Notes: generated by a model not told the origin, from the letters alone. A stretch of DNA of 64,000 nt from Candidatus Methanosuratincola mesotaenarum (GCA_038801705.1 JAULTC010000001.1:169916-233915); one strand, 5' to 3'. Shown: positions 8,899 through 50,829, counted from the stretch's first letter. Translations and numbers: made by a program.

Positions 8899-9924
8899 TC
8901 ACGCATCGTCTGAGAGCCCACTCAGCGACTCCGCCAGCCTGAGCTGCCGCCCCTTCTCCTTCATAGCGATGGTAAGGTCGTAAACCTCGTCGACCGTTTC
9001 GAAGCGGAGCTTTCTGACCTTTTCGAAGTTCCACCCAGTGCACTTCACTGCTGAGACAAACGATGCAAACGAGACCGCCTTTATCCAGCTCTTGGTCCTT
9101 AGGAAGGCTGCAATGAAGCTACCAGACCAGGTGTCCCCTGCTCCAGTGACGTCAACCGCCCTCTTCGTTATCGCCGCGAGCGCGGGTATCAAGTCTGCCG
9201 TTCCATCAGACCTTATGAGTGTCCCAAATTCGCCGAGTGTCAGCACGAGCGTCTTTGTGCGTATTACCCTGATCGCCTCCGATACGACCTCCTTGCCCGT
9301 CAGCGCGTGTAGCTCTCTCTCATTGAGTATGAAGATGTCGGCCATTGATGCCGCGTTTAGTATTGCTTCCCGGTTCACCCTGCTCCCCATGTAGTTTATG
9401 CATGAGTTGACAGAGATCTTCACCTCCGACTCAGAGTCCCTGAGCGCGGATACCATCCGCTCGACCTTGGGCGGGTTCATGGGGGCTATGTGGACAAAGT
9501 CCGCACCCCTCCGAACTGCCTTCAGAAGCATGCGCGTCGTGATTGCTGATGCCAGACCCGGGTAGCTTTCGTGATAGTGGGCATTCCAATCCTGATCGTA
9601 GGATATGTCGAACCTCGTGCTCTTTCCCTTCCTCCTTATGATGAATTCCTGCGGGAAGTCAGCTATGGAGTCCCAGAACCTGTAGTCGTTCCCTACCGCG
9701 GTGACTAGAGATACATTCCTGCAGAGCGTCTTCGCACCATAGGCGGCGTATAGGGCAGCCCCGCCCGGCTGCATCCGCTCGCCGTTAATGTTTCTAATCC
9801 TGTCGACTGATGTATGGCCGACAAAGACGATCTCTGCCAATAGAACCACTTGGTTTAACAGGAGGCGATCTCCTATAAAAAAGCTTGACCTCACCGACCC
9901 CAGTACCCATCCAGCTATCCGCAC
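8899..9924 (-). CDS. PfkB-family carbohydrate/nucleoside kinase (ribokinase-like)
   Basis: C-terminal VDVTGAGDTWSGSFIA is the PfkB DTxGAGD signature. N-terminal FVGHTSVDRI is the ribokinase-fold start, so the true start is probably internal, around 9850. Convergent with hisIE. Confidence 0.75.
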   Translation of the reverse strand: MRIAGWVLGSVRSSFFIGDRLLLNQVVLLAEIVFVGHTSVDRIRNINGERMQPGGAALYAAYGAKTLCRNVSLVTAVGNDYRFWDSIADFPQEFIIRRKGKSTRFDISYDQDWNAHYHESYPGLASAITTRMLLKAVRRGADFVHIAPMNPPKVERMVSALRDSESEVKISVNSCINYMGSRVNREAILNAASMADIFILNERELHALTGKEVVSEAIRVIRTKTLVLTLGEFGTLIRSDGTADLIPALAAITKRAVDVTGAGDTWSGSFIAAFLRTKSWIKAVSFASFVSAVKCTGWNFEKVRKLRFETVDEVYDLTIAMKEKGRQLRLAESLSGLSDDA

Positions 9925-10431: not shown

Positions 10432-10543
10432 CAGTTGCACCTGTGTTACCATTGGATGAGGTGGTACAACCCGGCTGCGATTATCACCTGGGCATAGGGA
10501 GTGTCAGTTGCACCTGTGTTACCATTGGATGAGGTGGTACAAC
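10432..10543. repeat. two identical 39-nt direct repeats (10432-10470, 10505-10543) bracketing a 34-nt segment identical to the 3' end of the trxB-like gene
   Basis: Read directly: CAGTTGCACCTGTGTTACCATTGGATGAGGTGGTACAAC occurs twice. The intervening sequence (37 nt counting the CAG shared with the second repeat) equals 28669-28705. See the finding of the same coordinates. Confidence 0.8.
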
Positions 10544-11554: not shown

Positions 11555-11881
11555 TTGGTAATGCGCAATAAAACTCCTGTCAAGTGCCCCAACTGCGGAT
11601 CGGAGATGACTGGCATTGGAAGGCAGACAATTAGGACGGGGCCGGTAAACGAGGCAATGTGGCTGCTGGTCTACCCGGACGTTGGAGTCCCGGTTGCATT
11701 CGATGCATACGTGTGTGAGTATTGCGGAAAATTCGAGCTGTTTGCGGATGAAAATGCCGTTAAGATGCTGAAGGGGGAATATGCCGGCGACGAATTGGTG
11801 AAGTGCAGTTCTTGTGGAAAGGAGTACATAAAAGAGTACTGGAGATGCCCGTACTGCGGGGCGGAAACGAAAAAAGGTTAG
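11555..11881 (+). CDS. small double zinc-ribbon protein
   Basis: 108 aa with four CxxC pairs: CPNC, CEYC, CSSC, CPYC. TATA-like TTATAAATAA lies about 100 nt upstream. Confidence 0.6.
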   Translation: MVMRNKTPVKCPNCGSEMTGIGRQTIRTGPVNEAMWLLVYPDVGVPVAFDAYVCEYCGKFELFADENAVKMLKGEYAGDELVKCSSCGKEYIKEYWRCPYCGAETKKG

Positions 11882-11936
11882 GGATCGCACTGGACTCGAC
11901 ACATCTGACCACCCTCCAATTCGGATGGAGGCAATG

Positions 11937-12006
11937 CTGACGTACTCCCACGGCTAAAGCCTGTGGGCTTGCCTTCGTTATCCACCTCATGGCCCCATTA
12001 TCGTAA
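11937..12006. repeat. 70-nt intergenic repeat element, copy 1 of 3
   Basis: CTGACGTACTCCCACGGCTAAAGCCTGTGGGCTTGCCTTCGTTATCCACCTCATGGCCCCATTATCGTAA. Two other copies at 26553-26622 and about 50760-50829 differ by no more than 2 nt. Confidence 0.85.
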
Positions 12007-12076
12007 GTAGGGAAGATATGCAACAAAAAGATGTAACATTGTTTCATAAAGCTTTACTTTAATAGCAGCCCAGTTA

Positions 12077-12715
12077 TTGCATGAGGTCACCGGTATGGGA
12101 ATTAGCATAGAGAATAAATTTTCGAGGGAGATCAGGAGCTTCTTTTCGCTTGCAGTAATCAACATCGCATTCAGCGGAATAGCGATGGCGATCGGGGTTT
12201 CCCTGGCAGTCACCAATATCCTAGCGCTCTTGGACGGGTGGTCGGTTATCAACATCGCAGCTTCAGCAGTCGGGATCGCAGCATTCGCCCTTGCGATCAG
12301 ATGGCTCATTGCAGTCGCAGAGCTCCTGAGCGGGGTTGATGATATAAAAGACGAATATTCCAAGGTGAAAGGAAACCAGAGCCCCAAAGCCCTGACGGGG
12401 CTGATAGTCAGGCTGACGGCGCACTACCGTTCAAATAGGCAACTGATATCGAGGCTCATCCTGCTCAGCAGGGCAGCAGGGGTCTGCTTCATAGCCAACG
12501 GCGCTCTCCTCCTCCTGCAGATGGCGCTCAATCTGCCTGCTGATTGGACGGGCATTTTGGCTTCCCTCGCGGCTGCGGCTGTGAACTTCGGCGTGGGGGT
12601 GGCTGGGATATCCATCCCTCACTTTTTCAAGAGGTACTCCTCGTGCTGGGAGGTAAGACTCAAAGAGATCACCCAAGCAGAAGAGGGGCTGTCCGTGATC
12701 GTGGGGAGAGAATAA
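12077..12715 (+). CDS. membrane protein of unknown function
   Basis: 212 aa with four or five hydrophobic segments. Stop overlaps the start (TAATG) of the downstream wHTH gene, suggesting co-transcription. Confidence 0.55.
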   Translation: MHEVTGMGISIENKFSREIRSFFSLAVINIAFSGIAMAIGVSLAVTNILALLDGWSVINIAASAVGIAAFALAIRWLIAVAELLSGVDDIKDEYSKVKGNQSPKALTGLIVRLTAHYRSNRQLISRLILLSRAAGVCFIANGALLLLQMALNLPADWTGILASLAAAAVNFGVGVAGISIPHFFKRYSSCWEVRLKEITQAEEGLSVIVGRE

Positions 12716-12990
12716 TGAGGGGAAGGAGGAGTCAGTACGAGATCTACTGGGAGATCCTCACCTACTGCGAGATGCCTAGACTCTTCACCTCGATAATCCA
12801 GAGGTGCGACCTCAACTCCAAGAACGGGCAGGAGCACTTGGCCTTCCTGGAGAAGAGGGGGTACATCGTCCGGGTTAGCGAGAATGGTAAGAATCTCTAT
12901 TCTACGACCGAGGCTGCCAAGGAGTTTATTGACCTCTTCATCAGGCTGTACCTGGATCTGTACGAAAACAGCCCAGAGTTCAAGATTTGA
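12715..12990 (+). CDS. small winged-helix DNA-binding protein
   Basis: 91 aa; pattern EILTYCEMP...TSIIQRCDLNSKNGQEHLAFLEKRGYIVRV is typical of archaeal wHTH regulators. Start coupled to the upstream membrane gene. Confidence 0.55.
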   Translation: MRGRRSQYEIYWEILTYCEMPRLFTSIIQRCDLNSKNGQEHLAFLEKRGYIVRVSENGKNLYSTTEAAKEFIDLFIRLYLDLYENSPEFKI

Positions 12991-13156
12991 TGATGTTTTT
13001 GAATGACCTCTATCCTTTGCCATCTGGAAATGGCTGGATTTGCAACGGATCTCTTCCGGAAGCGTTTAGGAATTCTTCAATTAAACAAATTAAAATAGTT
13101 AAATTAATCATCCATATATATTGGGTAGGAAGGTAGAATAGCTGAGGTCAAACGGC

Positions 13157-14203
13157 TTGCACGACCCGCTAGACGAGATTTGTGAAGCGCTGAGGCGTCA
13201 CCTGGAGCTTCCAGCTGGAGGAATCGTATCCGGATTCAGCCAGCCCATCGGCGAGGACTCGCTGCAGGGGCTTCACCTGTCTGGCGCGGAGGAGATACCA
13301 GTGATCTCCGCGGTCGACGGCGGATCGAACACACTCCTGAGGACTCCGACGCTGGTGGTGGTGCTGAACAGGGTCTACTACAACCAGTTCCTCGGGATGA
13401 GAAAGATGGACCACTACGAAACTGTGGAGTTCATCTCGAAGACCGAGATAATAGAGAGGGACAAGAGGAACTTCTTCAGAACCGAGGTCTTCCCGCTGGA
13501 GGGACCATGCCTCTTATCACCTATAGAGATAGACCTCAAGGACGAGACCCTGATGGTGGGGACGACCTACGGAGATATGAGCAGGGCTCTCTCGATGGCA
13601 AGAAGGTTCTGCGAGTGGAGGCTCGCGGAAAGGGCGGTGGAAGCCGGAGCGGAGTGCATCCTGATGGATGGAGCGCTCCAGACTGCCTTCAAGGACGAGC
13701 ATAAGGTCGCGAACAAGCTCTACGATAAGGCAAAGGGATCCGGATCGATCGTGGCAGGGCTTTCGAAGAGTACAACGATATATCTGGCTAACGGATTCCC
13801 GCTGGCAGGGACGGTGGACGAGATGGCCAGGAGGAAGGGGTACCCTAGGTGGATAATAAAGCTCGGGGAATCCGAGGAGTGGACCCATAGGGCGACCGTG
13901 TACTATGCGAAGCTCCATGAAATGGCCGACAGTGGGTACAGGCTTGACGTATTCGAGGGTGCAAAAGAGGAGGAGGTCGAGGGGCTGTTGAGGGGGCTGC
14001 TCGCCTGCTCGACCTATTTCGGGTATCCCGGTTATCCTTACCCGCTGATAGACGCGCATACCTATGCGAAAGTCGGACAGGCAGAAGCGGACGGGTTCAG
14101 GGCCCAGATCCTCGACAGGCTAGGCTGGGATGAATGCAGAAAGCTCGAACTGATGGAGCGGGCCCTGATGCAACACGGCGTTTTAGACTCATTGGGTGGT
14201 TGA
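13157..14203 (+). CDS. nurA: NurA 5'-3' nuclease
   Basis: SAVDGGSN and CILMDGALQ match the NurA catalytic Asp motifs. Directly upstream of herA. Confidence 0.8.
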   Translation: MHDPLDEICEALRRHLELPAGGIVSGFSQPIGEDSLQGLHLSGAEEIPVISAVDGGSNTLLRTPTLVVVLNRVYYNQFLGMRKMDHYETVEFISKTEIIERDKRNFFRTEVFPLEGPCLLSPIEIDLKDETLMVGTTYGDMSRALSMARRFCEWRLAERAVEAGAECILMDGALQTAFKDEHKVANKLYDKAKGSGSIVAGLSKSTTIYLANGFPLAGTVDEMARRKGYPRWIIKLGESEEWTHRATVYYAKLHEMADSGYRLDVFEGAKEEEVEGLLRGLLACSTYFGYPGYPYPLIDAHTYAKVGQAEADGFRAQILDRLGWDECRKLELMERALMQHGVLDSLGG

Positions 14204-14206
14204 GAT

Positions 14207-15817
14207 ATGGAAAAGGAGACGGATGTTGAAAGCCGTGAAGTGGAGTATGTTGGGCAGATCGTATCTGGGAACGACAGCGAGTTTCTGCTGAGGGAGAAGC
14301 AGGGGGCAAAGCTCGAGCTCGGCGACTTGCTGGTCGTGGACAACGAAGGTGTGAAGTACATATGTATGGTCTCCGAGCTTAGCTACGGGAGCCTTATTGC
14401 TCCGGAAAGGATCCTGACGAGCGCGGGGAGCATTCTCGAGGGGGTGAACCCTAGGCTAGAGTTCCCTGAGAAGGACCTCAGGATCTTCCGCCAGATCCAC
14501 ACCAAGCCGCTGCTAGAGGTTATCTCCGAGGGCGAGAGGATGGCAGGCAGGGCGCCGAGGAGCATCCCCGAGTTCATGTCGAAGGCCAGGGTGGCAGAAG
14601 CCTCAGACTTCAGTTTCATGGAGGAGCCGAGGACAAAGGTCTTCATCGGGGACATCAGGAGTGGGGGAAAGACGCTCCCTGTCGGGTTCAGCATGGACGG
14701 AGAGAAACTCCTCTCGCACCATGTGCTCATCTCCGCGCAGACCGGAAGGGGCAAGTCGAACTTGGTCAAGGTCCTGCTCTGGGAGGCTATGAAGCACGAA
14801 AAGTTCGGGGTACTGGTGATGGACGTCCATAACGAGTACTACGGGACTACAACCTCACCTGGACTGAAGGACCACCCCAACGCCAGAAGAGTGTTGAGGT
14901 ACTACTCGAGGAGCCCCCCACCTGGGGGGCAGCTGCTGAAGATCAACCTCAAGTCCATCGATGTGGACGACCTGAAGGGAATCGTCGAGTTCACCGAAGC
15001 ACAGGAGGGGACCCTCGAAATGCTCAGGAGGGAAAAGGGGGCGGAGTGGATCTCTGCACTGCTCGAATGGAGCGAGGATGAGAAAGGGTCTAGGAAGCCG
15101 ACGGGAACGATCCGCGTGCTGAAGCGCAAGATATGCAATATATTCAACCTGAATGAAACTCCCGCGGGTTACGTCTGCGAGGACGGGGTCTTCGACCTCG
15201 GTGGGATGGGCGAGGAGACCATCAACGACATGGCGAGGGCGCTTGAGGACGGAAAGGTCGTGCTCATCGATGGCTCCTCGATCTCTGACGACGCTGGGCT
15301 CGTGATAGCGAGCGCGGTCATCAGGAAGCTCTTCGACAGATACGAGGAGTACAAGCTCTCTGGCACCATCCACGAGAAGGCGCAGATCGGGGTCGTGCTC
15401 GAAGAAGCCCCAAGGGTCCTGGACGTCGCCCATGGAGGCAACATCTTCAGCAGGATCGCCCGCGAGGGGAGGAAGTTCAAAATAGGGCTCATTGCGATCA
15501 CCCAACTTGCATCGGTGATACCCAAGGACATCCTGGCAAACATAGGGACGAAGGTCATCATGGGGAACGAGATGGCGCAGGAGAGGAGAGTGTTGGTGGA
15601 GAACGCGGCGCAGGACCTCAGCGGCTATGACAGGATAATTGCTGGTCTTGAAGTGGGCGAGGCGATAGTCAGCTCGATATTCTCCAAGTTCCCAGTCCCG
15701 GTCAAGATTCCGAAGTTCGAGGAGATTGCCGGCAGCTCCAAAGCCCAAGGGCGAGGGCAGACCCAAAAACAAGCCGAGACACCAAACATGCCGCCTGTAA
15801 GGAAGACGTACTTCTAG
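14207..15817 (+). CDS. herA: HerA DNA helicase (FtsK/HerA ATPase)
   Basis: Walker A ISAQTGRGKSN and Walker B VVLEEAPRV; 536 aa. Between nurA and mre11. Confidence 0.85.
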   Translation: MEKETDVESREVEYVGQIVSGNDSEFLLREKQGAKLELGDLLVVDNEGVKYICMVSELSYGSLIAPERILTSAGSILEGVNPRLEFPEKDLRIFRQIHTKPLLEVISEGERMAGRAPRSIPEFMSKARVAEASDFSFMEEPRTKVFIGDIRSGGKTLPVGFSMDGEKLLSHHVLISAQTGRGKSNLVKVLLWEAMKHEKFGVLVMDVHNEYYGTTTSPGLKDHPNARRVLRYYSRSPPPGGQLLKINLKSIDVDDLKGIVEFTEAQEGTLEMLRREKGAEWISALLEWSEDEKGSRKPTGTIRVLKRKICNIFNLNETPAGYVCEDGVFDLGGMGEETINDMARALEDGKVVLIDGSSISDDAGLVIASAVIRKLFDRYEEYKLSGTIHEKAQIGVVLEEAPRVLDVAHGGNIFSRIAREGRKFKIGLIAITQLASVIPKDILANIGTKVIMGNEMAQERRVLVENAAQDLSGYDRIIAGLEVGEAIVSSIFSKFPVPVKIPKFEEIAGSSKAQGRGQTQKQAETPNMPPVRKTYF

Positions 15818-15835: not shown

Positions 15836-17203
15836 ATGAGGTTCGCGCATATGGCTGACCTCCACCTAGGGGCAGTCTCAGACCCGAAGATGAAGGAGCT
15901 GGAGGTCGCCACTCTTGAGAGGGCATTCAAGATATGTGTCGAGAAAGAGGCAGACTTCGTGATCATCGCCGGGGACATCTTCCACACCAATGTCCCGGAC
16001 CTATCGGTAGTGAAGGCTGCCTTGGGGATCTTCAAGAAGTACGTCGATACGGGCAGGAAGATCTACGTGGTCTACGGCAGCCACGACTTCTCCCCGAACT
16101 CGACCTCGATCATCGACATCCTCGAGGCTGCAGGGATATTCGTAAGGGTCGGGAAACCTGAGGTGGTCGACGGGAAGCTAAGACCAGAGGTGGTCACGGA
16201 CTGGAGGACAGGCGCAAAGATCACGGGGATCTCCGGGAGGAGGACCTCGTTGGAGAAGGAGGCATTCGACGACCTTGACAGGGATTTCCTGAAAGGGATA
16301 GATGGTCCTAAAGTATTCGTCTTCCACACCGGGATACTGGAGATGAGGAAGGAAGGGGAAAAATTCGACGGGATCTCCCAGAGCATGCTTCCCGAGGGGT
16401 TCGACTACTACGCCGGCGGACATGTCCACAGAATCTTCGTTGATCCGAAGCAGGGCAGAGTCGTCTTCCCAGGGCCGCTATTCACCGGCTGGGGCGTAGA
16501 CCTGGAGGCTACCATTATGGGCGAGAGAAGGGGCTTCTGCATGGTCAATTGCCAGTACGGAGAGAAGCCAGAGGTGGAGTTTGTGGATCTTAAGCCCTTC
16601 AATGGAGTCCACAAGATCATCGACGCGTCCGGGATGTCTGCATCCGAGCTTAACGAGGAGCTCATGTTGTGGGCAACCGACGTCGACGTGAAGGGGAAAG
16701 TCGTGCTCCTCAAGGTCTTCGGCGAGCTCTCATCGGGGAGGACGAGCGACATCGACTTAGGTCTGGTCAGGGAGATGCTGATGGAGAGCGGTGCGATCTA
16801 CCTCCACCTGAACAGGAACGGGCTCAGGACAAGGGAGATGGCGGCAGTGACCGCCATCGGGGAGAGCGCAGATGAGATAGAGAGGAAGATCTTCAAGGAG
16901 ATGGCAGGAGCAGTGAAGGACCTTGACGGGAAGGCGATTGAGGACGAGCTCGAGGTAGCTGCGAAACTCCTGACATGCCTGAGGAGACCTAAGCTCGAGG
17001 GTGAGAGCCAGGAGGACTATTTCTCGAGGTTGGACAGCGAGACGATGGGGATTCTCGGACTGTTATCAGGAGAAGAGGAAGAGAGGGGCAGAGAGAAGGG
17101 GGAAAAAGAAAAGAGGAACGCAGAGGAGAGAGAAAAAACTGCAGTCGGGCAGCCCGCTCCTGAAGGGAATACACCAAGAAGGAAGGGGTGCACGAGACGA
17201 TAA
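15836..17203 (+). CDS. mre11: Mre11 DNA double-strand break repair nuclease
   Basis: Calcineurin-like phosphoesterase motifs: HMADLHLG, IIAGDIFH, VYGSHD, GGHVH. Overlaps the rad50 start. Confidence 0.9.
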   Translation: MRFAHMADLHLGAVSDPKMKELEVATLERAFKICVEKEADFVIIAGDIFHTNVPDLSVVKAALGIFKKYVDTGRKIYVVYGSHDFSPNSTSIIDILEAAGIFVRVGKPEVVDGKLRPEVVTDWRTGAKITGISGRRTSLEKEAFDDLDRDFLKGIDGPKVFVFHTGILEMRKEGEKFDGISQSMLPEGFDYYAGGHVHRIFVDPKQGRVVFPGPLFTGWGVDLEATIMGERRGFCMVNCQYGEKPEVEFVDLKPFNGVHKIIDASGMSASELNEELMLWATDVDVKGKVVLLKVFGELSSGRTSDIDLGLVREMLMESGAIYLHLNRNGLRTREMAAVTAIGESADEIERKIFKEMAGAVKDLDGKAIEDELEVAAKLLTCLRRPKLEGESQEDYFSRLDSETMGILGLLSGEEEERGREKGEKEKRNAEEREKTAVGQPAPEGNTPRRKGCTRR

Positions 17204-19263
17204 TCAAGTCGATCAGGCTCAAAAACATCCGGACATATGAGGAGGAGGAAGTCAAGCTGCCCGAAGGGATTATACTTTTCGAGGGTGGCATAGGCGCCGG
17301 CAAGTCGACGCTGCTCCTCGCCATGGAGTTCGCGCTCTTCGGGCTCGGGAACGAGAAGGGGACAACACTGCTGAGCCTCGGTAAGAATTCCGGAAGAGTC
17401 GACCTAACCTTTGAGGTCGGAGGTAAGGAAGTCAGGGTATCGAGGTCGCTGGAGAGGGTGAAGAAGCAGGCTGCGGACGCAATGCACCAAGGGCTTCTCT
17501 TGCCCCAAAGCGTCAGGCAGTACGATTGCTGGATAGAGTACAACGGCGCCCGGACTTCTTACTCCCCGAAGGAGATGAAGGAGCAGGTCCTTAAAATTTT
17601 GAACTACAACGAGCCGACGGACCCTAAGGCAAAGAGTGTCATATTCAGGTACGCGGTCTACACCCCGCAGGAGGAGATGAAGGAGATCCTCTCACAGCCA
17701 CCTGACCTGAGGCTCCAGACGATTAGAAAGGCACTGAGGATCGAAGATTATAAGGTAGCGATGGAGAACGCGAGGGCGATAGCTGCTGACCTGAGGAAGC
17801 AGGCGGAATACACTAGAAAGACCGTGGAGCGCCTCCCGGAGATACGCATGGAGATCAATAAGATCAAAGAGAGGCGCCCTGTTCTCGATGGCAAGTTGGA
17901 GGAGATAATCAGGGAGGCGGAGGCGGTAGATATTGAGCTTGCACGGCTGAAGGGAAGGAGGGAGGAGATCCACTCGGAGCTGCTCCGCTACGCCAAAGAC
18001 GCGAAAGATGTGGAACAGATCGAGGACGACCTTGAAAAGGCGAAGGCTGAGATCGGAAGGCTAGAGAAGGAGATTGCCCAAAACAGGAAGAGGCTGGATG
18101 GGATCCGTGCGCAGATTAAGATACTCGAGTCAGCAAAGGAACCCATGATGTCCGAGGAAGAGGTCGAGGGTTTTCTTGAGGATGCGAAGGCTAGACTTAG
18201 CGAATGCGATGGGCTACTTGGAAAACTCGAGGCTGAGCTGAGCAATATTAGGACACTTGTGATGAATGGGTACTGCCCCACATGCAACAGGCCGATAGAC
18301 GGGGCAGAGTACGAAGCTCACCTCAGGGAGGCAGAGAGGAATTACGAGGATGCAAAAGAGAGACGCGAGGATGCGAAGAAGGAGATACAGGCGCTGGAGG
18401 CGAAGAAGAGGGAGATCATCAAGTACGGAAAGATAAGGGAGCAGATGAATGGGCTCAGGGAACTTGAAACCGAGGTCGAGGACAGGATCTTCGATTGGGA
18501 GGAGAGGCTTGGGAAGGCTAGGCAGAGCGAGGCAGAGCTCTCGGAGAGGAAGGCTAAGGCCCTTGTCGCTGTGGAGAGGTACAGGGCCTTGGAGGAGGAG
18601 TATAGAAAGTGTGACGCAGAGATCAGGAAGGAGGAGAAGGAGAGGGATGGGCATCTGAAGGAGAAGGCGAGGCTAGAGAAGGAGATCGCGGTGGACGATG
18701 AGAGGCTCGGGGAGCTCGAGGGGGAGGCTGAGAGGCTCGAAGCCGAGAAGAAAAGGGGGGAGAAACTTGGCTGGTACTCTGAGTGGCTGATGAAGTACTT
18801 TGCGGTGGCGCTGGAGAGGATAGAGCTAACCGTGATGAACACGGTGAGGATGGAATTCGAGGAGGAGTTCGGCAGGTGGTTCTTGTACCTTGTAGAGGAT
18901 CCGTCGAAGGGGGTCAGGATCGACGAGGACTTTACGCCGTTGGTCACGCAGGACTCGTACGAGCAGGACTTGAACAATTTGAGCGGTGGGGAGAGGACCT
19001 CGCTAGCGCTTGCGTACAGGCTCGCGCTGAACAGAGTCGTCCAGAGAAACTCGAAGACAGGGGCGGACCTGTTGATCCTGGACGAGCCGACGGACGGGTT
19101 CAGCAAGGATCAGATAGGGAAGATGGGTGACCTGCTCAGGGAGCTCGGGCTGAGGCAGGCGGTGATCGTATCACATGAGAGGGAGCTCGAGGGTGCAGTG
19201 GACCACATATTCAGGATACAGAAGGATGGCGGGAAGTCGAAGGTGTATGCAGCATCAGGCTGA
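17188..19263 (+). CDS. rad50: Rad50 ATPase
   Basis: Walker A GGIGAGKST, long coiled coil, zinc hook CPTC, ABC signature LSGGERTSLALA, Walker B LLILDE. Confidence 0.9.
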   Translation: MHETIIKSIRLKNIRTYEEEEVKLPEGIILFEGGIGAGKSTLLLAMEFALFGLGNEKGTTLLSLGKNSGRVDLTFEVGGKEVRVSRSLERVKKQAADAMHQGLLLPQSVRQYDCWIEYNGARTSYSPKEMKEQVLKILNYNEPTDPKAKSVIFRYAVYTPQEEMKEILSQPPDLRLQTIRKALRIEDYKVAMENARAIAADLRKQAEYTRKTVERLPEIRMEINKIKERRPVLDGKLEEIIREAEAVDIELARLKGRREEIHSELLRYAKDAKDVEQIEDDLEKAKAEIGRLEKEIAQNRKRLDGIRAQIKILESAKEPMMSEEEVEGFLEDAKARLSECDGLLGKLEAELSNIRTLVMNGYCPTCNRPIDGAEYEAHLREAERNYEDAKERREDAKKEIQALEAKKREIIKYGKIREQMNGLRELETEVEDRIFDWEERLGKARQSEAELSERKAKALVAVERYRALEEEYRKCDAEIRKEEKERDGHLKEKARLEKEIAVDDERLGELEGEAERLEAEKKRGEKLGWYSEWLMKYFAVALERIELTVMNTVRMEFEEEFGRWFLYLVEDPSKGVRIDEDFTPLVTQDSYEQDLNNLSGGERTSLALAYRLALNRVVQRNSKTGADLLILDEPTDGFSKDQIGKMGDLLRELGLRQAVIVSHERELEGAVDHIFRIQKDGGKSKVYAASG
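19150..19250. repeat. 101-bp direct repeat, copy A (the 3' end of rad50); copy B at 20784-20884
   Basis: CTGAGGCAGGCGGTGATCGTATCACATGAG...AAGGTGTATGC is identical at both sites. The two copies bracket 19251-20783. Confidence 0.85.
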
Positions 19264-19514
19264 GCCAGGACATCAATGATGTTTGATGTAGTTAAATCCA
19301 AGATTAGGATGGAAGTGGGAGACAGATTTATCAAAAACCACAATATTCTTGCCGTTCAGCACCTCCTCAGGTTTCATCCACCAAGGATTTTTGTACATTG
19401 ATCAATTAATCAATCCCGCTGGAATGGGCATTTCTATTGTCTACTGGAATTTTATTGACAGCTTATTTATAAACGAACAGCCTGTCACTGCATTGACCCA
19501 GCTGTCTTGAACAA

Positions 19515-20705
19515 TTGAGGATCTTGGACTCAGTGCGTGAGAGGCAGATCATGATAATCACAGGGCTCAGGAGGACGGGCAAGACTACCCTCATGTACCA
19601 GGCGATCGAGAGGCTGCTTGAGACTGAGGATCCGAGGAAGGTGCTCTACTTCTCCTTCGAGGAGCCGTCTCCTGGGCCCAAGGAAGTCGAGCACTATGAG
19701 AAGGGGGTCCTGAGGGAGCCCTTTGAGGACGCAGGGAGGATCTACGTCTTCTTTGATGAGGTCCAGTACGCCAGCGGCTGGGCATCGACCATTAAGCGGT
19801 TCTATGACCTATACCCAAACCTTAAGTTCTTCGTCTCCGGTTCGTCCTCGCTACTGCTCTCAAAGGAGGCGCTGGAGAGGCTGGCAGGGAGGTTCTTCTT
19901 CCTCGAGCTGAAACCCCTGACTTTTTTTGAATTTCTGGAGATGAAGGGGGCTGAGGTTGGGAGGCTGGAAGGATCCAAGCGTAGGGCGGAGATCCTCTTC
20001 TCGGAGTACCTGATGAAGTCAGGGTTCCCCGAGCTCGCTGGTTGGGGGGACGAGGCGAAGATCGCGGAGTACATCAGGAGCGTGGTGGTGGACAGGGCGA
20101 TCCTGAGGGACATACCGGTGATCTTCGGGAGCAGGGACATCGAGCTGTCCGAGAGGCTGATGGGGTTGATACTCCCGAACCCCGGGATGATTGCAAACGT
20201 CAACGCGCTATCCGAGAGCCTCGGGAGGAGCAGGATCACCGTCTCGAACTACCTGAGGTACATCGAAGCTTCCATGCTTGTTAGGTCTCTCTCTAACTTC
20301 AGGCCGGCGATCCTCTCCTCGTCCAGGAAGCTGAGGAAGGTCTACCCGGCGGCGCCCTCACTCATCTTTGCCTACGACAGGGAGGCTTTCAAGGAGAGCG
20401 CAGGGGCTGTGCTCGAGACGTACGCTGTGGGCGCACTTGGAGCCAGGCATTATTTCAGGGAGGGTAGAAAGGAGGTAGACATGATCCTGAAGGGAGGGAC
20501 TGGCGGAAAGGAGATCCTGCCCGTGGAGGTCAAGACGAGCGTGGGCGAGAGGGACTTGAGGAAGTTTTCTGGGCTGGTGGAGTATGTGGGTGCGAGGAGA
20601 GGCATAATGATCAGTCTCAACCAAGCGTTTAGCAGCGGCAATGTCGAGGTGTACCCAGCCTACTATGCCGAGAGGATCTTCCAACATGAAGCCACAAGGG
20701 AATGA
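19515..20705 (+). CDS. COG1373-type AAA+ ATPase with C-terminal DUF4143 (PD-(D/E)xK nuclease-like) domain
   Basis: Walker A GLRRTGKTT and Walker B VFFDEVQ. C-terminal EVDMILK...LPVEVK is a D...ExK nuclease-like motif. Preceded by an AT-rich promoter region. Confidence 0.8.
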   Translation: MRILDSVRERQIMIITGLRRTGKTTLMYQAIERLLETEDPRKVLYFSFEEPSPGPKEVEHYEKGVLREPFEDAGRIYVFFDEVQYASGWASTIKRFYDLYPNLKFFVSGSSSLLLSKEALERLAGRFFFLELKPLTFFEFLEMKGAEVGRLEGSKRRAEILFSEYLMKSGFPELAGWGDEAKIAEYIRSVVVDRAILRDIPVIFGSRDIELSERLMGLILPNPGMIANVNALSESLGRSRITVSNYLRYIEASMLVRSLSNFRPAILSSSRKLRKVYPAAPSLIFAYDREAFKESAGAVLETYAVGALGARHYFREGRKEVDMILKGGTGGKEILPVEVKTSVGERDLRKFSGLVEYVGARRGIMISLNQAFSSGNVEVYPAYYAERIFQHEATRE

Positions 20706-20783
20706 GGCGGCCGCTTGCTCTAATCATCTGCAAAAGCGCTCATAGGACTAGCCAGCTCATGGTTCCAGAATAGATGCAGATGG

Positions 20784-20884
20784 CTGAGGCAGGCGGTGAT
20801 CGTATCACATGAGAGGGAGCTCGAGGGTGCAGTGGACCACATATTCAGGATACAGAAGGATGGCGGGAAGTCGAAGGTGTATGC
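20784..20884. repeat. 101-bp direct repeat, copy B (orphan duplicate of the rad50 3' end)
   Basis: Identical to 19150-19250 but not joined to any rad50 coding sequence. Confidence 0.85.
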
Positions 20885-21055
20885 GGTGACAATGGCGGGT
20901 AGGACGGGATGGAATTGGATGTTAATAATAATGAGAAAAGAAAGGGTAAGAGGTGCCCAGAATCCATTCTGAAAGATTATTCGATGGGTCCTGATGCGCC
21001 TTGTGGCAAATAAAGAGCTGCTCAGCAGCACTGGACCGGATCTATGTGCCGCGCG

Positions 21056-22021
21056 TCAGAAGAGTCCGCTGAGGTACGGCTTCAGCGCCGAGATCGTGCT
21101 CCTGATCGAGAGGGAGGAGTCCATCGCGAAGTACAAGTAGCAGTGGCAGTTCCTGTAGCAGGACCGCATCATCTCCCGGCACTTCCTCGCCTTCTCCGAG
21201 AGCAGAAAGTCGAGGATAGGTTCCTGCGAGGCGTTGATGCTGCATGCGGAGTTGATATTGCACGGGTAGTAGAGCCTGCCGTCAGCGTCTATCAGCACGG
21301 AGGCAGTATTGCAGCTGTTGGGGACGTCAAGTGTCTTGAGATATCTCTCGGTAGTTATGACCGTCTGGGGGTACTTCTTCTTCAGCCGCAGGACCTCGTC
21401 CCTGAACGCGGCGATCTCCGGAAGGTGGTTGTCGGTCCCGGGGAGGTGGCAGGCGGGCATCACCACTGCTTTCGCGCCCGCTCTGAAGCACATCTGGACC
21501 TTCCACTCCAGGTCTTTGAGGTACTCCCTCATCACGACGATCTGGGCGCAGACCGTAGGTCCCCAAGTGGCGTACTCCGGGAGGCTTTCGAAGAGGTCAA
21601 GGTTCCCATGCCCCTCGTCGATGCTGATATGGAGGAAGTCGATGTACTTTGCATACTCCCTCATCGGCCTCCTGTCTATCAGCTTTCCGCTGGTCGTGAA
21701 TAGCAGGTAGAGGGGCTTAGTGTTCACATACCCGAGGATCTCCCCAATGTCTTTGCGCAGGAGCGGCTCACCTCCCTCCATACTAAGAAGTATGACACTG
21801 GATTTGGCGATGTTGTCAATGATCCTGAGCACCTTCCCAGTTGGCATGTCGGGCATCGGTTTCCTCCACACGTCGCAGAACTCGCACCTCGAGTCGCACC
21901 GCTGGATCACCTTGAAGGTGCAGTAGAATGGGTAGCGGAAGTCCTTCCTGGCATAGTTGCCAGCAGCGTATTTTAGTGTCGAGAGGTACTTTTTGATCGG
22001 CAACCGCCTTACCTTAGCCAT
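21056..22021 (-). CDS. radical SAM protein with Cys-rich C-terminal SPASM/twitch-like domain (MoaA/PqqE superfamily; function unknown)
   Basis: CDSRCEFC is the Cx3Cx2C cluster; GGEPLL is present. C-terminal Cys-rich stretch (CNTASVLIDADGRLYYPCNINSAC...CREMMRSCYRNCHC) suggests auxiliary clusters. 321 aa. Confidence 0.75.
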   Translation of the reverse strand: MAKVRRLPIKKYLSTLKYAAGNYARKDFRYPFYCTFKVIQRCDSRCEFCDVWRKPMPDMPTGKVLRIIDNIAKSSVILLSMEGGEPLLRKDIGEILGYVNTKPLYLLFTTSGKLIDRRPMREYAKYIDFLHISIDEGHGNLDLFESLPEYATWGPTVCAQIVVMREYLKDLEWKVQMCFRAGAKAVVMPACHLPGTDNHLPEIAAFRDEVLRLKKKYPQTVITTERYLKTLDVPNSCNTASVLIDADGRLYYPCNINSACSINASQEPILDFLLSEKARKCREMMRSCYRNCHCYLYFAMDSSLSIRSTISALKPYLSGLF

Positions 22022-22198: not shown

Positions 22199-23296
22199 TC
22201 AGGTTAAGGAAGTTGAAGAAGAAGCCGAGGCAGGAGTTGAAGTCTGACCGGCCTCTCCCCTCCTGCCCATCCCGTTCTCCAGAGCAACCTTCACGCCGAC
22301 GTAGGAGGCGGTTATCCCGCTTATCATGAGCTCGAACCAGAACATCACGAGCCTGGCGAGTATGGTAACCGACGCGGCGACTGCCGCCGGTACGCCAAAG
22401 CCCATGAAGAACCCGGTCATCGAGACCTCGATCACGCCAACTAGACCGGGGATCCCTATCGGCATCAACTGAACCATGCTCACGAAGAGCGCAACCGTGA
22501 GCACTGCCCAGTATGAGATCGGGTAGTTGAGGGAGTAGAACATCAGGTATGGGATGAATGCTACCAAGAAGTACCTTGCCGTCGCGATAGCCGCCGACGC
22601 GAGGATCGCCCCCTTCTTCGCTCCGCTTATGGAGTCCTGGAAAGTGTAGAGTACTCTTACTGCCCTCTCCCTGTTCTTTTCAGCGTCGTAGTCGTGCTTG
22701 AGGCGCCTGAAGAAAGGCGCGGTCCGCGTGATGAAGCCGCCGATGTACTTCTCGAACTTCCTCGCGTTGACCGCCAGGTAAACGCCGACGACGCTCAGGG
22801 CGATCGTGGAGGCTACCAGCGTTATGAAGGAGTAGAAAGCGCTCAGCTGCGTGGTCTCGGTCGTGATGAGGAGAGTTATGCTGCACCCGAGCACCCCGCA
22901 GAATGTGATCGCCAGGATGAGGCGGTGGAGGATGACGCTCGCGGTCGCCTCGCCCAGGCTCAGCCTCGACTTCTTCGTGGTCATCGTAACCCGCAGGATC
23001 TCTCCAGATACAGAGGCGGTAGGGATCATCATGTCACCGAAGATGCTGACTAGGACAACCTCAACGCAGCTGAGGAAACCCATCCCAGGCGGGGTCAGTA
23101 GAACCTTCCAGCTCAGCGCGAAGAGGGCTATGCAGAGAATGTCTATCAGCACCGCGAGGAGGGCTACCCGCGGGTCGAGCGTCAGTATGATCTGAACGAT
23201 CTGCCAGAAGCCGACGAAGTACAGGTAAAGGACCAAAATGATAACTCCTGCGATTACCATCAGCTTCTTAGGACTGATCGGGAGTTTAAGTTTCAA
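22199..23296 (-). CDS. UPF0104 / lysylphosphatidylglycerol-synthase-TM-like (flippase-like) membrane protein
   Basis: 365 aa with about eight helices. N-terminal pattern of basic residues then GxxxxLxxLxxxxxW is typical of the COG0392 family. Confidence 0.65.
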   Translation of the reverse strand: MKLKLPISPKKLMVIAGVIILVLYLYFVGFWQIVQIILTLDPRVALLAVLIDILCIALFALSWKVLLTPPGMGFLSCVEVVLVSIFGDMMIPTASVSGEILRVTMTTKKSRLSLGEATASVILHRLILAITFCGVLGCSITLLITTETTQLSAFYSFITLVASTIALSVVGVYLAVNARKFEKYIGGFITRTAPFFRRLKHDYDAEKNRERAVRVLYTFQDSISGAKKGAILASAAIATARYFLVAFIPYLMFYSLNYPISYWAVLTVALFVSMVQLMPIGIPGLVGVIEVSMTGFFMGFGVPAAVAASVTILARLVMFWFELMISGITASYVGVKVALENGMGRRGEAGQTSTPASASSSTSLT

Positions 23297-23684: not shown

Positions 23685-25079
23685 CTATTTCTTGGATTCT
23701 AAGGTGCCATGTAAGGGTTCCCCTGTCGCCATCTTAGCACACTCCATAAGCGATTCCACAAGGCTTGGGTGCGGCATTACTGATGAAGCCATCTCCTCAA
23801 GACGCATCCCCGACTGCACCGCAAGGACGCAAGCACTGATGATCTCGGATGCGTTTGCCCCGACGATCTGGGCGCCGATGATCCGCCTGCTCTCCTTCTC
23901 CGCGACGAGCTTAATGAACCCCTCCGGGCGGTTCATCGTCAGCGCCCGTGCGAGCGCGGCGAGCTGGAAAGTCCCTGTGACCACTTCAATTCCTTTCTTA
24001 GATGCCTCCTGCTCGTCCAAGCCGACCACAGCTATCTCCGGGTCTGAGTAGACCACTGAAGGGACGGAGCGCTGTTCGAACATTTTCCTCTTGCCGCTGA
24101 TGATCTCAGCAACTTGGTACCCGTGGTCCGAGGCCCTATGCGCAAGGTATGGCACGCCAATAACATCCCCCGCAGCAAATACGCCGGGGACGCTCGTCTC
24201 TAGCCGCCCGTTGACATTTACGAAGCCCTTCCTATCAAGCTCGATCCCTATTTCCTCAAGCCCAAGACCGTCGGTGTTCGGCCTCCTCCCAACCGCAACC
24301 AGTACAAACTCGCTCTCGACGAGATTGCCGTCCGAGAGAGCCGCCCTGTACCCTGCACTGCCCGCAGCCTCTAGCTTAACGATCCGACCCCCTATCCGCA
24401 TGTCCACACCAAGCTTCCCGAGCGAGTCGTAGACGGGCTTCACCACGTCTGGGCACCATCCTGGGAGGAGCTGATCCATGATCTCCACGATGACTACTTT
24501 GGACCCGAGCTCCGCGAGCGCGGTTGCCATCTCTACACCTATCACCCCGCCGCCAACTATGATGATGCGATTAGGGAGCTGCTTCAGCGAAAAGACCTCG
24601 TCCGAGCTTATCACCCCCTTGGAGTCGAACTTTGCATCGGGAAGGTCGTACGGCCTCGATCCCGTCGCCACGACGAAGCTCCGCGCCCTCAGCATGTCCC
24701 CGGAGGGGCTCACCATTACTGCATCCCTCGAGATGAACTCGGCGCTGCCTCTCACGAGCGCGACCCCCCTAGAGTTCAGCAGGTACTCGACTCCCTTCTT
24801 CGAGCGGTCTACTATGTGCCTCGTCCAGGAGGCGACCCTCTCAAAGTCCACAGAAACCTCCGCCCAGACGCCGCACCTAGCCGCCTTCTTTACATCATTT
24901 ACCGTCTTCGCGACTGAGAGAAGAGCCTTCATCGGGACGCACCCGCGGTTCAGGCATGTGCCACCAACCTGATCCCTTTCGACTAGTGCCACCTTCTTCC
25001 CGAGCTGCGCGGACCGGAGAGCGCAGACATACCCCGCTGGACCTCCACCAATCACGACAACATCGAATGACCGCTCCAT
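23685..25079 (-). CDS. lpdA: dihydrolipoamide dehydrogenase (E3)
   Basis: VVIGGGPAGY FAD motif, redox-active GGTCLNRGCVPMKAL, and the C-terminal His-Pro-Ser/Glu interface region. Start placed at MERSFDVVVIGGG. Confidence 0.85.
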   Translation of the reverse strand: MERSFDVVVIGGGPAGYVCALRSAQLGKKVALVERDQVGGTCLNRGCVPMKALLSVAKTVNDVKKAARCGVWAEVSVDFERVASWTRHIVDRSKKGVEYLLNSRGVALVRGSAEFISRDAVMVSPSGDMLRARSFVVATGSRPYDLPDAKFDSKGVISSDEVFSLKQLPNRIIIVGGGVIGVEMATALAELGSKVVIVEIMDQLLPGWCPDVVKPVYDSLGKLGVDMRIGGRIVKLEAAGSAGYRAALSDGNLVESEFVLVAVGRRPNTDGLGLEEIGIELDRKGFVNVNGRLETSVPGVFAAGDVIGVPYLAHRASDHGYQVAEIISGKRKMFEQRSVPSVVYSDPEIAVVGLDEQEASKKGIEVVTGTFQLAALARALTMNRPEGFIKLVAEKESRRIIGAQIVGANASEIISACVLAVQSGMRLEEMASSVMPHPSLVESLMECAKMATGEPLHGTLESKK

Positions 25080-25168
25080 CAAAAACACCTGCTTCAGATG
25101 ACGGATAAGGGATTTGGTGCCAGGCCCCAAAAAAAGCATTCGGTTTCGTTTGGTCTTATTAGGAGGGA

Positions 25169-26552: not shown

Positions 26553-26622
26553 TCTGACGTACTCTCACGGCTGAAGCCTGTGGGCTTGCCTTCGTTATCC
26601 ACCTCATGGCCCCATTATCGTA
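26553..26622. repeat. 70-nt intergenic repeat element, copy 2 of 3 (2 substitutions)
   Basis: Same orientation and same ends as copy 1; differs at two positions (C to T, A to G). Confidence 0.85.
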
Positions 26623-26815
26623 ACTTCGAGTTGACTTCGATATACTCGATAATGCGGCGTAGCTCGTCGGCAAACTTACCGTATGCCAATGTCGCCACCT
26701 TCGTATACCTTGATATGGTCAACCAGTTCAATCAACACTTCCCTTGTCAGCTTGAATAAAATCCATCAGCGTGTAATGCTCCCTCCATTTCGACACTTCT
26801 GATTTTTTTCTCTGT

Positions 26816-28598: not shown

Positions 28599-29549
28599 TT
28601 AATACAACATCACGATCGGCTTCTTTTTTATATAGCTGTAAGCCGTAAGCGCTGCTGCTGCCCCCTGACCGGCTGCGATTATCACCTGGGCATAGGGAGT
28701 GTCAGTGATGTCCCCTGCTGCGAAGAGCCCTTCGCAGCTGGTTCTTCCAAACTTGTCGGTTATTACCTTGCCCGCAGGATCCCTCTTGACGAGGTGCTCC
28801 ACATAATCGAGTTTGACGTCCCTCCCGATGTCTAGGAAGAGCGTATCGACCTTGAACTCCTGCTCGAGCCCGGTCTTCAAATTTTTTACCACGACCGACT
28901 CAAGGCATACGCCACCTTTCATTTCAATTATCACGGTATTCAGGAGGAGCTCGACATTTGGGATCGCCTTCACACGTACCAAGGTCGCCTCGTCTCCCCT
29001 GAACTCCTCCCTGCGGTGTATAAGGTAAACCTTCGACGCCTTGTAGGAAAGGAGCTCTGCCCTCTGCAGTGCGGTGTTCCCGCCTCCAACAATAGCTACG
29101 GTTTTTCCGGCCATCCGATCGAGATCGCACTTGAGCGAGATATTCACGCCCCTCCCCAGAAGCTGGTCTTCCCCTGGGACGCATAGCTTCCTCGGCTTTC
29201 TTCCCCCCGTCACTATGACCGCCCTCCCATAAAAGACGCCGGCTGTGCTATGAACACGGAAGAGGTCTCCATCTTTCTCGATCCTTTTGACCTCGGCCGT
29301 CACGAACTCCGCCCCGCTTATCCTTGCCTGGTTTTCAAAGGCTGCAGCCAACTTAATTCCGTCAGTCTCCAGGTACCCCAAGTAGTTATCGATGTGCTCG
29401 GTCTGGAGGATCTGGCCGCCGATGTCCATACTTAGTACTAGCGTGTCCAGCAGCCTCTTCCTTGCATAAACTGCAGCAGCAAGACCGGCCGGTCCTGCGC
29501 CGACAATGACAACATCATAGGCAAAAATATGCGCCACCACCGAGATCAT
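28599..29549 (-). CDS. thioredoxin-reductase-family flavoprotein with non-canonical active site (SxxC instead of CxxC)
   Basis: FAD motif VVIVGAGPAGL, NAD(P) motif IVGGGNTA, and TrxR C-terminus GDITDTPYAQVIIAAGQG. By gap-free alignment to E. coli TrxB, the CATC position reads SLKC. Confidence 0.75.
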   Translation of the reverse strand: MISVVAHIFAYDVVIVGAGPAGLAAAVYARKRLLDTLVLSMDIGGQILQTEHIDNYLGYLETDGIKLAAAFENQARISGAEFVTAEVKRIEKDGDLFRVHSTAGVFYGRAVIVTGGRKPRKLCVPGEDQLLGRGVNISLKCDLDRMAGKTVAIVGGGNTALQRAELLSYKASKVYLIHRREEFRGDEATLVRVKAIPNVELLLNTVIIEMKGGVCLESVVVKNLKTGLEQEFKVDTLFLDIGRDVKLDYVEHLVKRDPAGKVITDKFGRTSCEGLFAAGDITDTPYAQVIIAAGQGAAAALTAYSYIKKKPIVMLY

Positions 29550-50759: not shown

Positions 50760-50829
50760 CTGACGTACTCCCACGGCTAAAGCCTGTGGGCTTGCCTTCG
50801 TTATCCACCTCATGGCCCCATTATCGTAA
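50760..50829. repeat. 70-nt intergenic repeat element, copy 3 of 3
   Basis: Identical to copy 1. Lies between an ABC ATPase gene and the LEA14-like gene. Confidence 0.85.

Follow-up and report, generated by a model that had tools for sequence, protein, structure and literature searches.

What leaves an exact copy of a gene's 3′ end some way behind that gene, with one other gene held between the two copies? The question is raised by a 64,000-nt stretch of the Candidatus Methanosuratincola mesotaenarum genome (GCA_038801705.1, JAULTC010000001.1:169916-233915; hereafter the window, with positions counted from its first letter), in which the end of the DNA-repair gene rad50 recurs downstream of a gene for a COG1373-type ATPase-nuclease. 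A first-pass annotation of this DNA had read the arrangement as an ATPase cassette with its own promoter, brought to the rad50 3′ end by att-type integration or by a recombination-dependent duplicative insertion. The explanation that we favour, and to which we give about an even chance, is that the repeat is a recombination scar and not the target-site or att duplication of a mobile element. Two alternative blocks of rad50 neighbours, an ATPase block and a block formed by a radical SAM gene and an LPG-synthase gene, would have come to stand in tandem when one recombined in beside the other.

Two copies of the rad50 end with different tails

Repeat finding and self-BLAST over the 64-kb window gave a single exact direct repeat of 103 nt (100% identity), whose copies R1 (19148–19250) and R2 (20782–20884) both lie on the plus strand, 1634 nt apart from start to start. 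No repeat in the 64 kb is longer, the runner-up being a 70-nt element described below, and an exact 103-mer cannot recur by chance within such a length. R1 falls inside rad50 codons 654–687 and spans nt −116 to −14 relative to the final base of the stop codon; R2 is an orphan rad50 3′ fragment in rad50 orientation. The first-pass annotation, which had described a repeat of the last 101 bp of rad50, was right that the duplication is real and exact and slightly misjudged its extent: the repeat ends 13 nt before the end of the stop codon, leaving the final 13 nt of the gene (GC/A GCA TCA GGC TGA, 19251–19263, the slash marking the repeat edge) outside it.

Since the repeat stops short in this way, the two copies carry different tails. 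Tail 1 completes a normal 691-aa Rad50 ending in KVYAASG, which agrees in length and C-terminus with the proteins of congeners (686–691 aa). Tail 2 begins GC/G GTG ACA ATG GCG GGT AGG... and has no stop for 27 codons; in the frame of rad50, tail 2 and the spacer 'c' that follows it (171 nt from R2 to the radical SAM stop codon, 20885–21055) give AVTMAGRTGWNWMLIIMRKERVRGAQNPF and then a stop. Integration at an att site does not fit this arrangement, because the normal Rad50 end follows copy 1, not copy 2.

Both repeat edges are abrupt. The upstream flanks of the two copies match at 14 of 76 positions and the downstream flanks at 58 of 171 in register, no better than in neighbouring registers, and gapped local alignment found no residual similarity between them (p=0.15). 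The repeated segment is identical to the window's own rad50 at 103 of 103 positions and to the same segment in other species at only 85–89 of 103, from which it follows that both copies derive from this species' own rad50. The edges of the repeat do not coincide with any edges of cross-species rad50 conservation, the last 420 nt of the gene being uniformly 80–90% conserved.

Three spacers complete the anatomy on the plus strand. Tail 1 and an AT-rich spacer 'a' of 251 nt (together 19251–19514; spacer ~40% GC) separate R1 from the ATPase gene, 76 nt (20706–20781) lie between the ATPase stop codon and R2, and spacer 'c' leads from tail 2 to the radical SAM gene. None of the three has significant similarity to relatives' spacers, to one another or to the rest of the window. 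One 21-nt inverted match of a window spacer to contig L007 (z=5.9) was judged a promoter-like low-complexity hit and set aside. Neither the small open reading frames (ORFs) of the spacers nor a minus-strand ORF across R2 matched a Pfam family.

A 58-aa 'hypothetical protein' is annotated over R2 in both NCBI assemblies of this locus (20796–20972, plus strand). This ORF is the orphan Rad50 C-terminal fragment reading into the spacer, and almost certainly not a gene. A search for Rad50 proteins carrying tail 2 turned up the window's own 58-aa ORF and an L016-type fragment (L016 is introduced below), and nothing further.

The second of these assemblies, GCA_014361455.1 (L001), shows this arrangement in full, including both repeat copies at 100%. 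It is 99.7% identical to the window over 21 kb (61 differences), and the density of single-nucleotide polymorphisms (SNPs) between the two strains in the insert (2 in 1531 nt) equals that of the flanks. These two are the NCBI assemblies on record with the proteins concerned, on contigs of 510,345 and 309,867 nt; the window's ATPase and radical SAM proteins gave no record on exact look-up.

Searches for the usual machinery of insertion were negative. Repeat searches found no inverted repeat pairing the ends of the insert, and neither in the insert nor in the ±10 kb around it did Pfam searches on the ORFs of the region, together with the L001 gene table, reveal a gene for an integrase, a transposase or replication, which upholds the first-pass annotation on this point. 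The only trace of this sort within ±10 kb in L001 is a 106-aa Zn-ribbon ORF with faint TnpB-like hits, 7 kb off. No tRNA gene or Rfam family that might serve as an att target or RNA element was found in the 64 kb, and self-BLAST revealed no further copy of the insert or of the ATPase gene within the window. The GC content of the insert is typical of the window.

The rad50 end as a breakpoint across the genus

We compared the rad50 loci of 18 further contigs, which are given L numbers where they need to be told apart. In a Rad50 tree L016 and L019 are basal, the window comes next and the other species form a crown group. The upstream part of the operon, nurA-herA-mre11, is conserved and collinear in all relatives, and the genus has at least six different neighbours behind rad50: the ATPase gene, a methyltransferase with an ABC transporter, a pyridine-nucleotide disulphide oxidoreductase (PyrRedox), a V4R-PAP2 pair, a gene for an 89-aa membrane protein, and a 76-aa gene followed by the radical SAM gene.

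A 207-nt spacer, a full-length ATPase orthologue in the same orientation and then PyrRedox follow rad50 directly in the basal congener L016 and in L022, two contigs that are 99.9% identical and come from different samples. They carry the ATPase gene at the same place as the window and have no duplication, a finding that the first-pass annotation had itself set against an insertion. L019 has a methyltransferase and ABC-transporter operon after rad50, L021 has PyrRedox, and L011 and L020 have V4R, PAP2, flavodoxin, radical SAM, LPG synthase and PyrRedox in that order. The gene for the 89-aa membrane protein and then the radical SAM gene follow in L006, L009 and L010, the 76-aa gene and then radical SAM and LPG synthase in L012–L015, and the radical SAM gene, after a 146-nt spacer, in L004. 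The radical SAM-LPG synthase block stands after rad50 in most congeners (L003–L006, L012–L015, L017 and L018). The expectation that relatives would have rad50 followed by the radical SAM gene without the ATPase holds for the crown group, in at least 10 congeners.

How finely the switch is placed can be seen between L016 and L019. The two are 97–100% identical through nurA-herA-mre11-rad50 up to nt −31 of rad50, match at 19 of 30 positions in the last 30 nt (L016 10034–10064, L019 9031–9061) and are unrelated beyond, where L016 has the ATPase and PyrRedox genes and L019 the methyltransferase and an oligopeptide ABC transporter. As they diverge within the last 30 nt of the gene, the alternative cassettes carry rad50 tails of their own. 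The window repeat ends at −14, within this 30-nt zone, and the repeated segment offers good homology for exchange, given its conservation at 85–89 of 103 positions between species.

Set against these arrangements, each half of the window resembles a neighbourhood known from a relative. R1, tail 1 and the ATPase gene reproduce the rad50-to-ATPase adjacency of L016. R2 lies in matching orientation to the radical SAM gene at about the distance seen in L004 (~158 nt after the notional stop, against 146 nt). Because each copy mimics a relatives' adjacency in this way, we take both blocks to stand now in tandem.

As a separate observation on this region, Ca. M. verstraetei LCB70 (L003, CP186953) has a 2.3-kb insertion between the radical SAM and LPG-synthase genes (11662–13977), on which lie a DUF3800 gene and a 157-aa ORF; L017 has it as well, L015 and L018 (99% Rad50 identity) do not. 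This insertion or deletion is plain, with no flanking repeat, and serves as a control for how an insertion looks in the genus. It is another sign of rapid turnover of the neighbourhood.

A second orphan fragment in Ca. M. petrocarbonis

Ca. M. petrocarbonis LWZ-6 (L005, CP130488) has a rad50 orphan of its own, independent in structure from that of the window: a 108-nt copy of rad50 codons 603–639 (13123–13230) lies 3.3 kb downstream of the segment in the gene itself (9808–9915). The same orphan is present in L012 and L013, which are 92% identical to L005 (gene 9811–9918, orphan 13130–13237), and is annotated there as a 49-aa gene. It stands between the LPG-synthase and V4R genes with 1–3 mismatches to the gene (97–99% identity), matching the resident rad50 at 105–107 of 108 positions and L011-type rad50 at 89–94 of 108.

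The order in L005, L012 and L013 is LPG synthase, a spacer, a PAP2 remnant (PAP2′), ~11 nt, the rad50 fragment, 150 nt, an ATPase remnant, V4R and the resident PAP2 gene. The ATPase remnant, ATGATGATATAA..., begins ~150 nt to the right of the orphan; at its position the close relative L007 has an intact 424-aa ATPase, and most of the rad50 fragment is deleted there. PAP2′ comprises the first ~16 codons of a gene of the L006 type (local alignment z=20) and is unlike the full-length resident PAP2 1.8 kb further on (z~1). The resident PAP2 is in turn nearer to L011/L020 (84–85%) than to L003/L015/L006 (80–81%), the reverse of the Rad50 relationships.

On these comparisons, one-sided recombination would be the simplest reading of the petrocarbonis junction. 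The donor block, from an L006-like arrangement, would have comprised the 3′ part of rad50, radical SAM, LPG synthase, a spacer and PAP2 codons 1–16, and the recipient would have had the order rad50, ATPase, V4R, PAP2. Joining would have been anchored by homology in rad50 at one end and completed by an illegitimate join inside the recipient's rad50 at the other, so that the old rad50 end and the old cassette would have been displaced downstream, decaying since.

The bracketed ATPase-nuclease gene

The gene between the repeat copies (19515–20705, plus strand) encodes an AAA_14 domain (PF13173, 3.2e-35, profile positions 2–129 of 129) and a DUF4143 domain (PF13635, 1.9e-15), with a weak Mrr_cat hit (1e-3), and its product matches the PADLOC PDC-S01 profile (3.8e-57). 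The Walker A (GLRRTGKTT) and Walker B (FFDE) motifs are kept, in invariant alignment columns, as is the E-x-K of PVEVK, with E338 and K340 invariant in the alignment. PDC-S01 is a COG1373 candidate defence system, abundant in archaea, whose experimental validation is pending (PMC12988326), and DUF4143/COG1373 has been placed in the PD-(D/E)xK superfamily (PMC3424549). The window protein is like these in domain architecture and motif residues; a search by sequence gave no solved structure for it.

It differs from the PDC-S01 orthologues at its start. Close homologues are all ~420 aa long and have a conserved N-terminus of ~31 residues (MxxExLERFNEWWFTGKVRKELALPFKRxAF), which the alignment shows to be missing from the window ATPase. 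An in-frame TGA stands at 19494, just upstream of the ORF, and the possible starts are TTG 19515, TTG 19524, GTG 19533 and ATG 19551; the gene was called as 393 and 384 aa in the two assemblies. Orthologues in L016, L007, L005 and L023 share a promoter/leader motif immediately before the ATG, and this motif is absent from the window, so the AT-rich spacer 'a' is not the native ATPase promoter region and the earlier description of a cassette preceded by its own promoter has to be given up. The TATA-like TTTATAAA at 19466–19473 in this spacer is a candidate only. When the lost 5′ part of the gene was looked for in spacer 'a' and further afield, tblastn gave chance-level matches only (for example, 19301–19357, E=7, out of register). 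The truncation is a separate deletion, and the gene may be decaying, as in most congeners.

The ATPase is not evidently foreign on sequence grounds. Its codon usage ranks 25th of 31 ORFs, which is within range and not decisive. It is 69% identical to the orthologue in L016, 72% to that in L007 and 71% to that in L023, about the same divergence as that of Rad50 (64–70%), and the L007 and L016 ATPases are 78.5% identical to each other. Sequence divergence is compatible with vertical descent, three taxa allowing no test of topology. The first-pass annotation had proposed looking for other copies of the gene with the same flanks; none is present in the window, and the orthologues in L016/L022, in L007 (where the gene is located behind LPG synthase) and in L023 have no flanking repeats. 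A functional link of the ATPase-nuclease to the repair operon, to which that annotation had also drawn attention, is not indicated, the gene having been moved, pseudogenised or lost in most congeners.

Three-taxon distances gave one further observation. When the window ATPase (19515–20705) is compared with those of L016 (10272–11567) and L007 (1414–2688), the window branch is about twice as long (~19 against 9–12% differences), whereas the Rad50 branches are roughly equal. The longer branch may reflect relaxed constraint after the 5′ truncation.

A proposed exchange with one homologous and one illegitimate end

We infer a one-sided recombination between a conspecific donor and recipient as the mechanism behind the scar. 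Like L016 and L019, the two would have been haplotypes that were alike up to the rad50 tail and differed from there on. Ordinary homologous recombination in the shared gene would account for one end of the exchange, and for the other an illegitimate join at 20781/20782, the right end of the 76-nt spacer, 116 nt before the end of a rad50 copy. A single event of this kind, with one homologous crossover and one illegitimate join, would yield both abrupt repeat edges. Its outcome would be the intact rad50 with tail 1 and the ATPase block, followed by R2, tail 2, a spacer of ~160 nt and the radical SAM-LPG synthase block, which would formerly have adjoined rad50 directly.

By analogy with petrocarbonis, the ATPase block, which adjoins the intact rad50, would be the newcomer. 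If it is, the recombination-dependent duplicative insertion offered in the first-pass annotation is essentially right and comes close to the mechanism that we favour, except that the source would be a related chromosome with the ATPase gene as the normal neighbour of rad50, not a mobile element. Several features expected of a displacement are found here: an intact anchor gene, an orphan of it downstream on the same strand, neighbours of the orphan that are rad50 neighbours in relatives, and an exchange point that recurs.

Several points weigh against the scar. The searches made found no genome or contig in which rad50, the repeated segment, tail 2, spacer 'c' and the radical SAM gene follow one another without the ATPase, and no relatives with an intermediate arrangement. 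Tail 2 has no stop for 27 codons and would make an atypical Rad50 of 714 aa; speculatively, the open tail might go back to slippage by one base in the run of G before TAG. Because the window spacers cannot be aligned to those of any relative, no junction can be compared with ancestral sequence, and a mosaic signal within the window rad50 was not detectable. The 5′ truncation of the ATPase is left unexplained by a recombination model, and the petrocarbonis orphan requires an extra internal deletion (rad50 codons 640–691 and part of the spacer). The lineage is represented by only two very similar genomes, with the next relative at 70% Rad50 identity. To our knowledge, homology-facilitated illegitimate recombination is documented in bacteria only and is not known from experiments in archaea.

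We also considered an active part for the bracketed gene, either as a recombination-dependent 'homing' cassette, which would carry along or generate a short rad50 homology arm and thereby be directed time and again to the rad50 3′ end, or as a nuclease that provokes breaks at this site. Either role would explain why the ATPase gene abuts rad50 in two deep lineages and why orphans of ~105 nt lie 76–150 nt from it in two species. We regard this as extremely improbable; such observations are better explained by ordinary displacement of cassettes, the gene being truncated, pseudogenised or lost in most lineages.

Weighing other origins of the repeat

The scar has to be weighed against other ways of producing two identical segments. 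A deletion or some other rearrangement, reaching from the ATPase 3′ spacer to sequence downstream of the radical SAM gene, might have been repaired by a template switch, coupled to replication or repair, that copied ~100 nt of rad50 as filler (microhomology-mediated break-induced replication, fork stalling and template switching, or synthesis-dependent end joining). R2 looks the part, being a clean island of 103 nt whose flanks show no homology, taken in direct orientation from the resident rad50 1.6 kb away and set exactly at the boundary of two synteny blocks, and petrocarbonis has an island of similar size (108 nt) at another block boundary. A templated filler does not, however, predict that the copied piece should end in the final 30 nt of rad50, the zone of the haplotype switch, that the distance and orientation of R2 should fit a vestigial rad50-to-radical SAM adjacency, or that the petrocarbonis fragment should lie upstream of the ATPase, in the ancestral rad50-to-ATPase order, beside a foreign-type PAP2 remnant; nor were other patchwork pieces found in the window spacers. 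We consider it unlikely. A local tandem duplication beginning at 19148, with a later deletion that left the first 103 nt of the second copy, would account for direct orientation and exact identity, and tandem duplications are the commonest spontaneous rearrangement in prokaryotes. That course needs two events, the second of them a deletion reaching or passing the end of the second copy, and leaves unaccounted for both the breakpoint zone in the rad50 tail and the petrocarbonis junction with its foreign-type PAP2 remnant, which makes it decidedly unlikely.

More in the spirit of the first-pass annotation would be a decayed mobile element, integrated site-specifically at a 103-nt att core, whose integrase was later deleted together with the ATPase 5′ end. 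The insert does lie between exact direct repeats that overlap a conserved gene at its 3′ end, the ATPase is from an often mobile family of candidate defence genes, its truncation shows that an internal deletion happened, and at least 10 relatives have the 'empty' arrangement with radical SAM behind rad50. Yet integrase, transposase and replication genes are lacking from the insert and its surroundings, the ATPases of L016/L022 sit in the same slot without a repeat, the ATPase has diverged about as much as Rad50, its GC content is typical of the window and its codon usage within range, what follows R2 is unlike a displaced native rad50 end, and in petrocarbonis the genes that lie between the paired repeats are core genes, radical SAM and LPG synthase, and not an element; we think such an element very improbable. 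A transposon or insertion sequence does not fit, in view of the lack of a transposase and of terminal inverted repeats and of a 103-nt duplication where a short one of 2–15 nt is expected; that the duplication is far too long for a transposase had been recognized from the start. An assembly artefact or mixed population, in which an insert-less chromosome and a separate circle or strain variant were threaded together through the shared 103 nt, has next to no weight with us. A k=31 graph collapses the repeat, and the Logan contig L002 is exactly the loop between the copies, the insert plus exactly 30 nt (k−1) of each, as expected of such a graph; sharing both of L001's SNPs, it is not independent of L001. 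Nevertheless, two NCBI assemblies that differ at 61 sites over 21 kb take the same path on their 310- and 510-kb contigs, the 20781/R2 junction is present in the reads behind L002, and on the alternative chromosome Rad50 would run on into a tail of 27 codons.

Gene content and other repeats of the window

The gene content described in the first-pass annotation (nurA-herA-mre11-rad50, a single AAA+ and DUF4143 gene, radical SAM) agrees with Pfam. On the plus strand, nurA (13157–14203; NurA 2.6e-15), herA (14207–15817; DUF87/HerA 5.5e-24) and mre11 (15836–17203; Metallophos 2.3e-13) precede the intact rad50 (17188–19263; AAA_23 2.2e-19, SbcC_Walker_B and the NCBIfam Rad50 models). Beyond spacer 'c', on the minus strand, come the radical SAM gene (21056–22021) and the LPG-synthase-TM gene (22199–23296), both assigned by Pfam and synteny, and PyrRedox (23685–25139; Pfam). 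PyrRedox follows LPG synthase in the window and in L011/L020, but follows the ATPase gene in L016. The 76-aa and 89-aa genes, V4R, PAP2 and flavodoxin of relatives are absent from the window.

Two other sets of repeats were seen. A 70-nt element occurs in three intergenic copies, 97–100% identical, at 11937–12006, 26554–26623 and 50760–50829 (plus strand). It is sharp-ended, reading CTGACGTA...ATCGTAA, and one copy lies 56 nt downstream of the 106-aa Zn-ribbon ORF (11561–11881), whose faint Pfam hits are TnpB/Cas12f-like. The element has no Rfam or tRNA match and an ordinary fold energy, and it is absent from the loci of other species. Candidates for what it represents are an IS200/605-type end, a remnant of an omega-RNA and a small species-specific repeat. 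Exact repeats of 38–39 nt are arranged A-B-A inside a DUF996-like gene (10432–10543), with B present again 18 kb away (28669–28706), and probably encode low-complexity linker segments.

Comparison with known systems

If the scar is what we take it for, related genomes of the Methanosuratincola lineage, which are methyl-reducing methanogens within the Methanomethylicia, exchange blocks of genes behind rad50, whose end serves them as a recombination boundary. It would also mean that one-sided, partly illegitimate recombination, so far documented mainly at bacterial toxin loci, operates in an archaeon and leaves gene ends that can be diagnosed as orphans, and that what both public assemblies call a 58-aa 'hypothetical protein' is a piece of rad50 and not a gene. 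Mobility should not be inferred from long repeats on either side of a defence-type gene unless comparative data are at hand. We see no sign of a new kind of mobile element or of a new repair function.

Archaeal integrative elements leave att duplications through SSV-type or pTN3-type tyrosine recombinases (PMC8371274, PMC5495485). The window resembles the duplications described there in having direct repeats that flank an insert and overlap a host gene's 3′ end. It is unlike them in having no recombinase, in bracketing a single truncated gene of chromosomal type whose orthologues occupy the same slot without repeats, and in a right-hand copy that is followed by no credible native 3′ end.

Homology-facilitated illegitimate recombination is described for naturally transformable Acinetobacter, Streptococcus pneumoniae and Pseudomonas stutzeri and for Escherichia coli conjugation (PMC3240628). 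The events covered there share with our locus one homologous and one illegitimate end and the addition of non-homologous DNA beside the anchor; they usually delete recipient DNA, whereas a 103-nt duplication was left here.

The closest likeness is to the effector loci of Rhs, contact-dependent inhibition (CDI) and type VI secretion (T6SS) systems, where C-terminal displacement produces 'orphan' 3′ fragments and homology-facilitated illegitimate recombination is the proposed cause (PMC5361080). There, as at rad50, a conserved upstream gene provides the homology anchor, a new downstream block is placed beside it, the old 3′ end is shifted downstream as a short conserved piece together with its old neighbours, and related strains carry different blocks. 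The differences lie in what is exchanged: the anchor here is a DNA-repair gene in an archaeon, its variable tail is only 4 codons long and codes for no toxin domain, the blocks consist of housekeeping or accessory genes and not of effector-immunity pairs, one orphan stands in place of an array, and no selective rationale such as retention of immunity is evident at rad50. With these differences, we class the locus as a further case of a known type of recombination scar.

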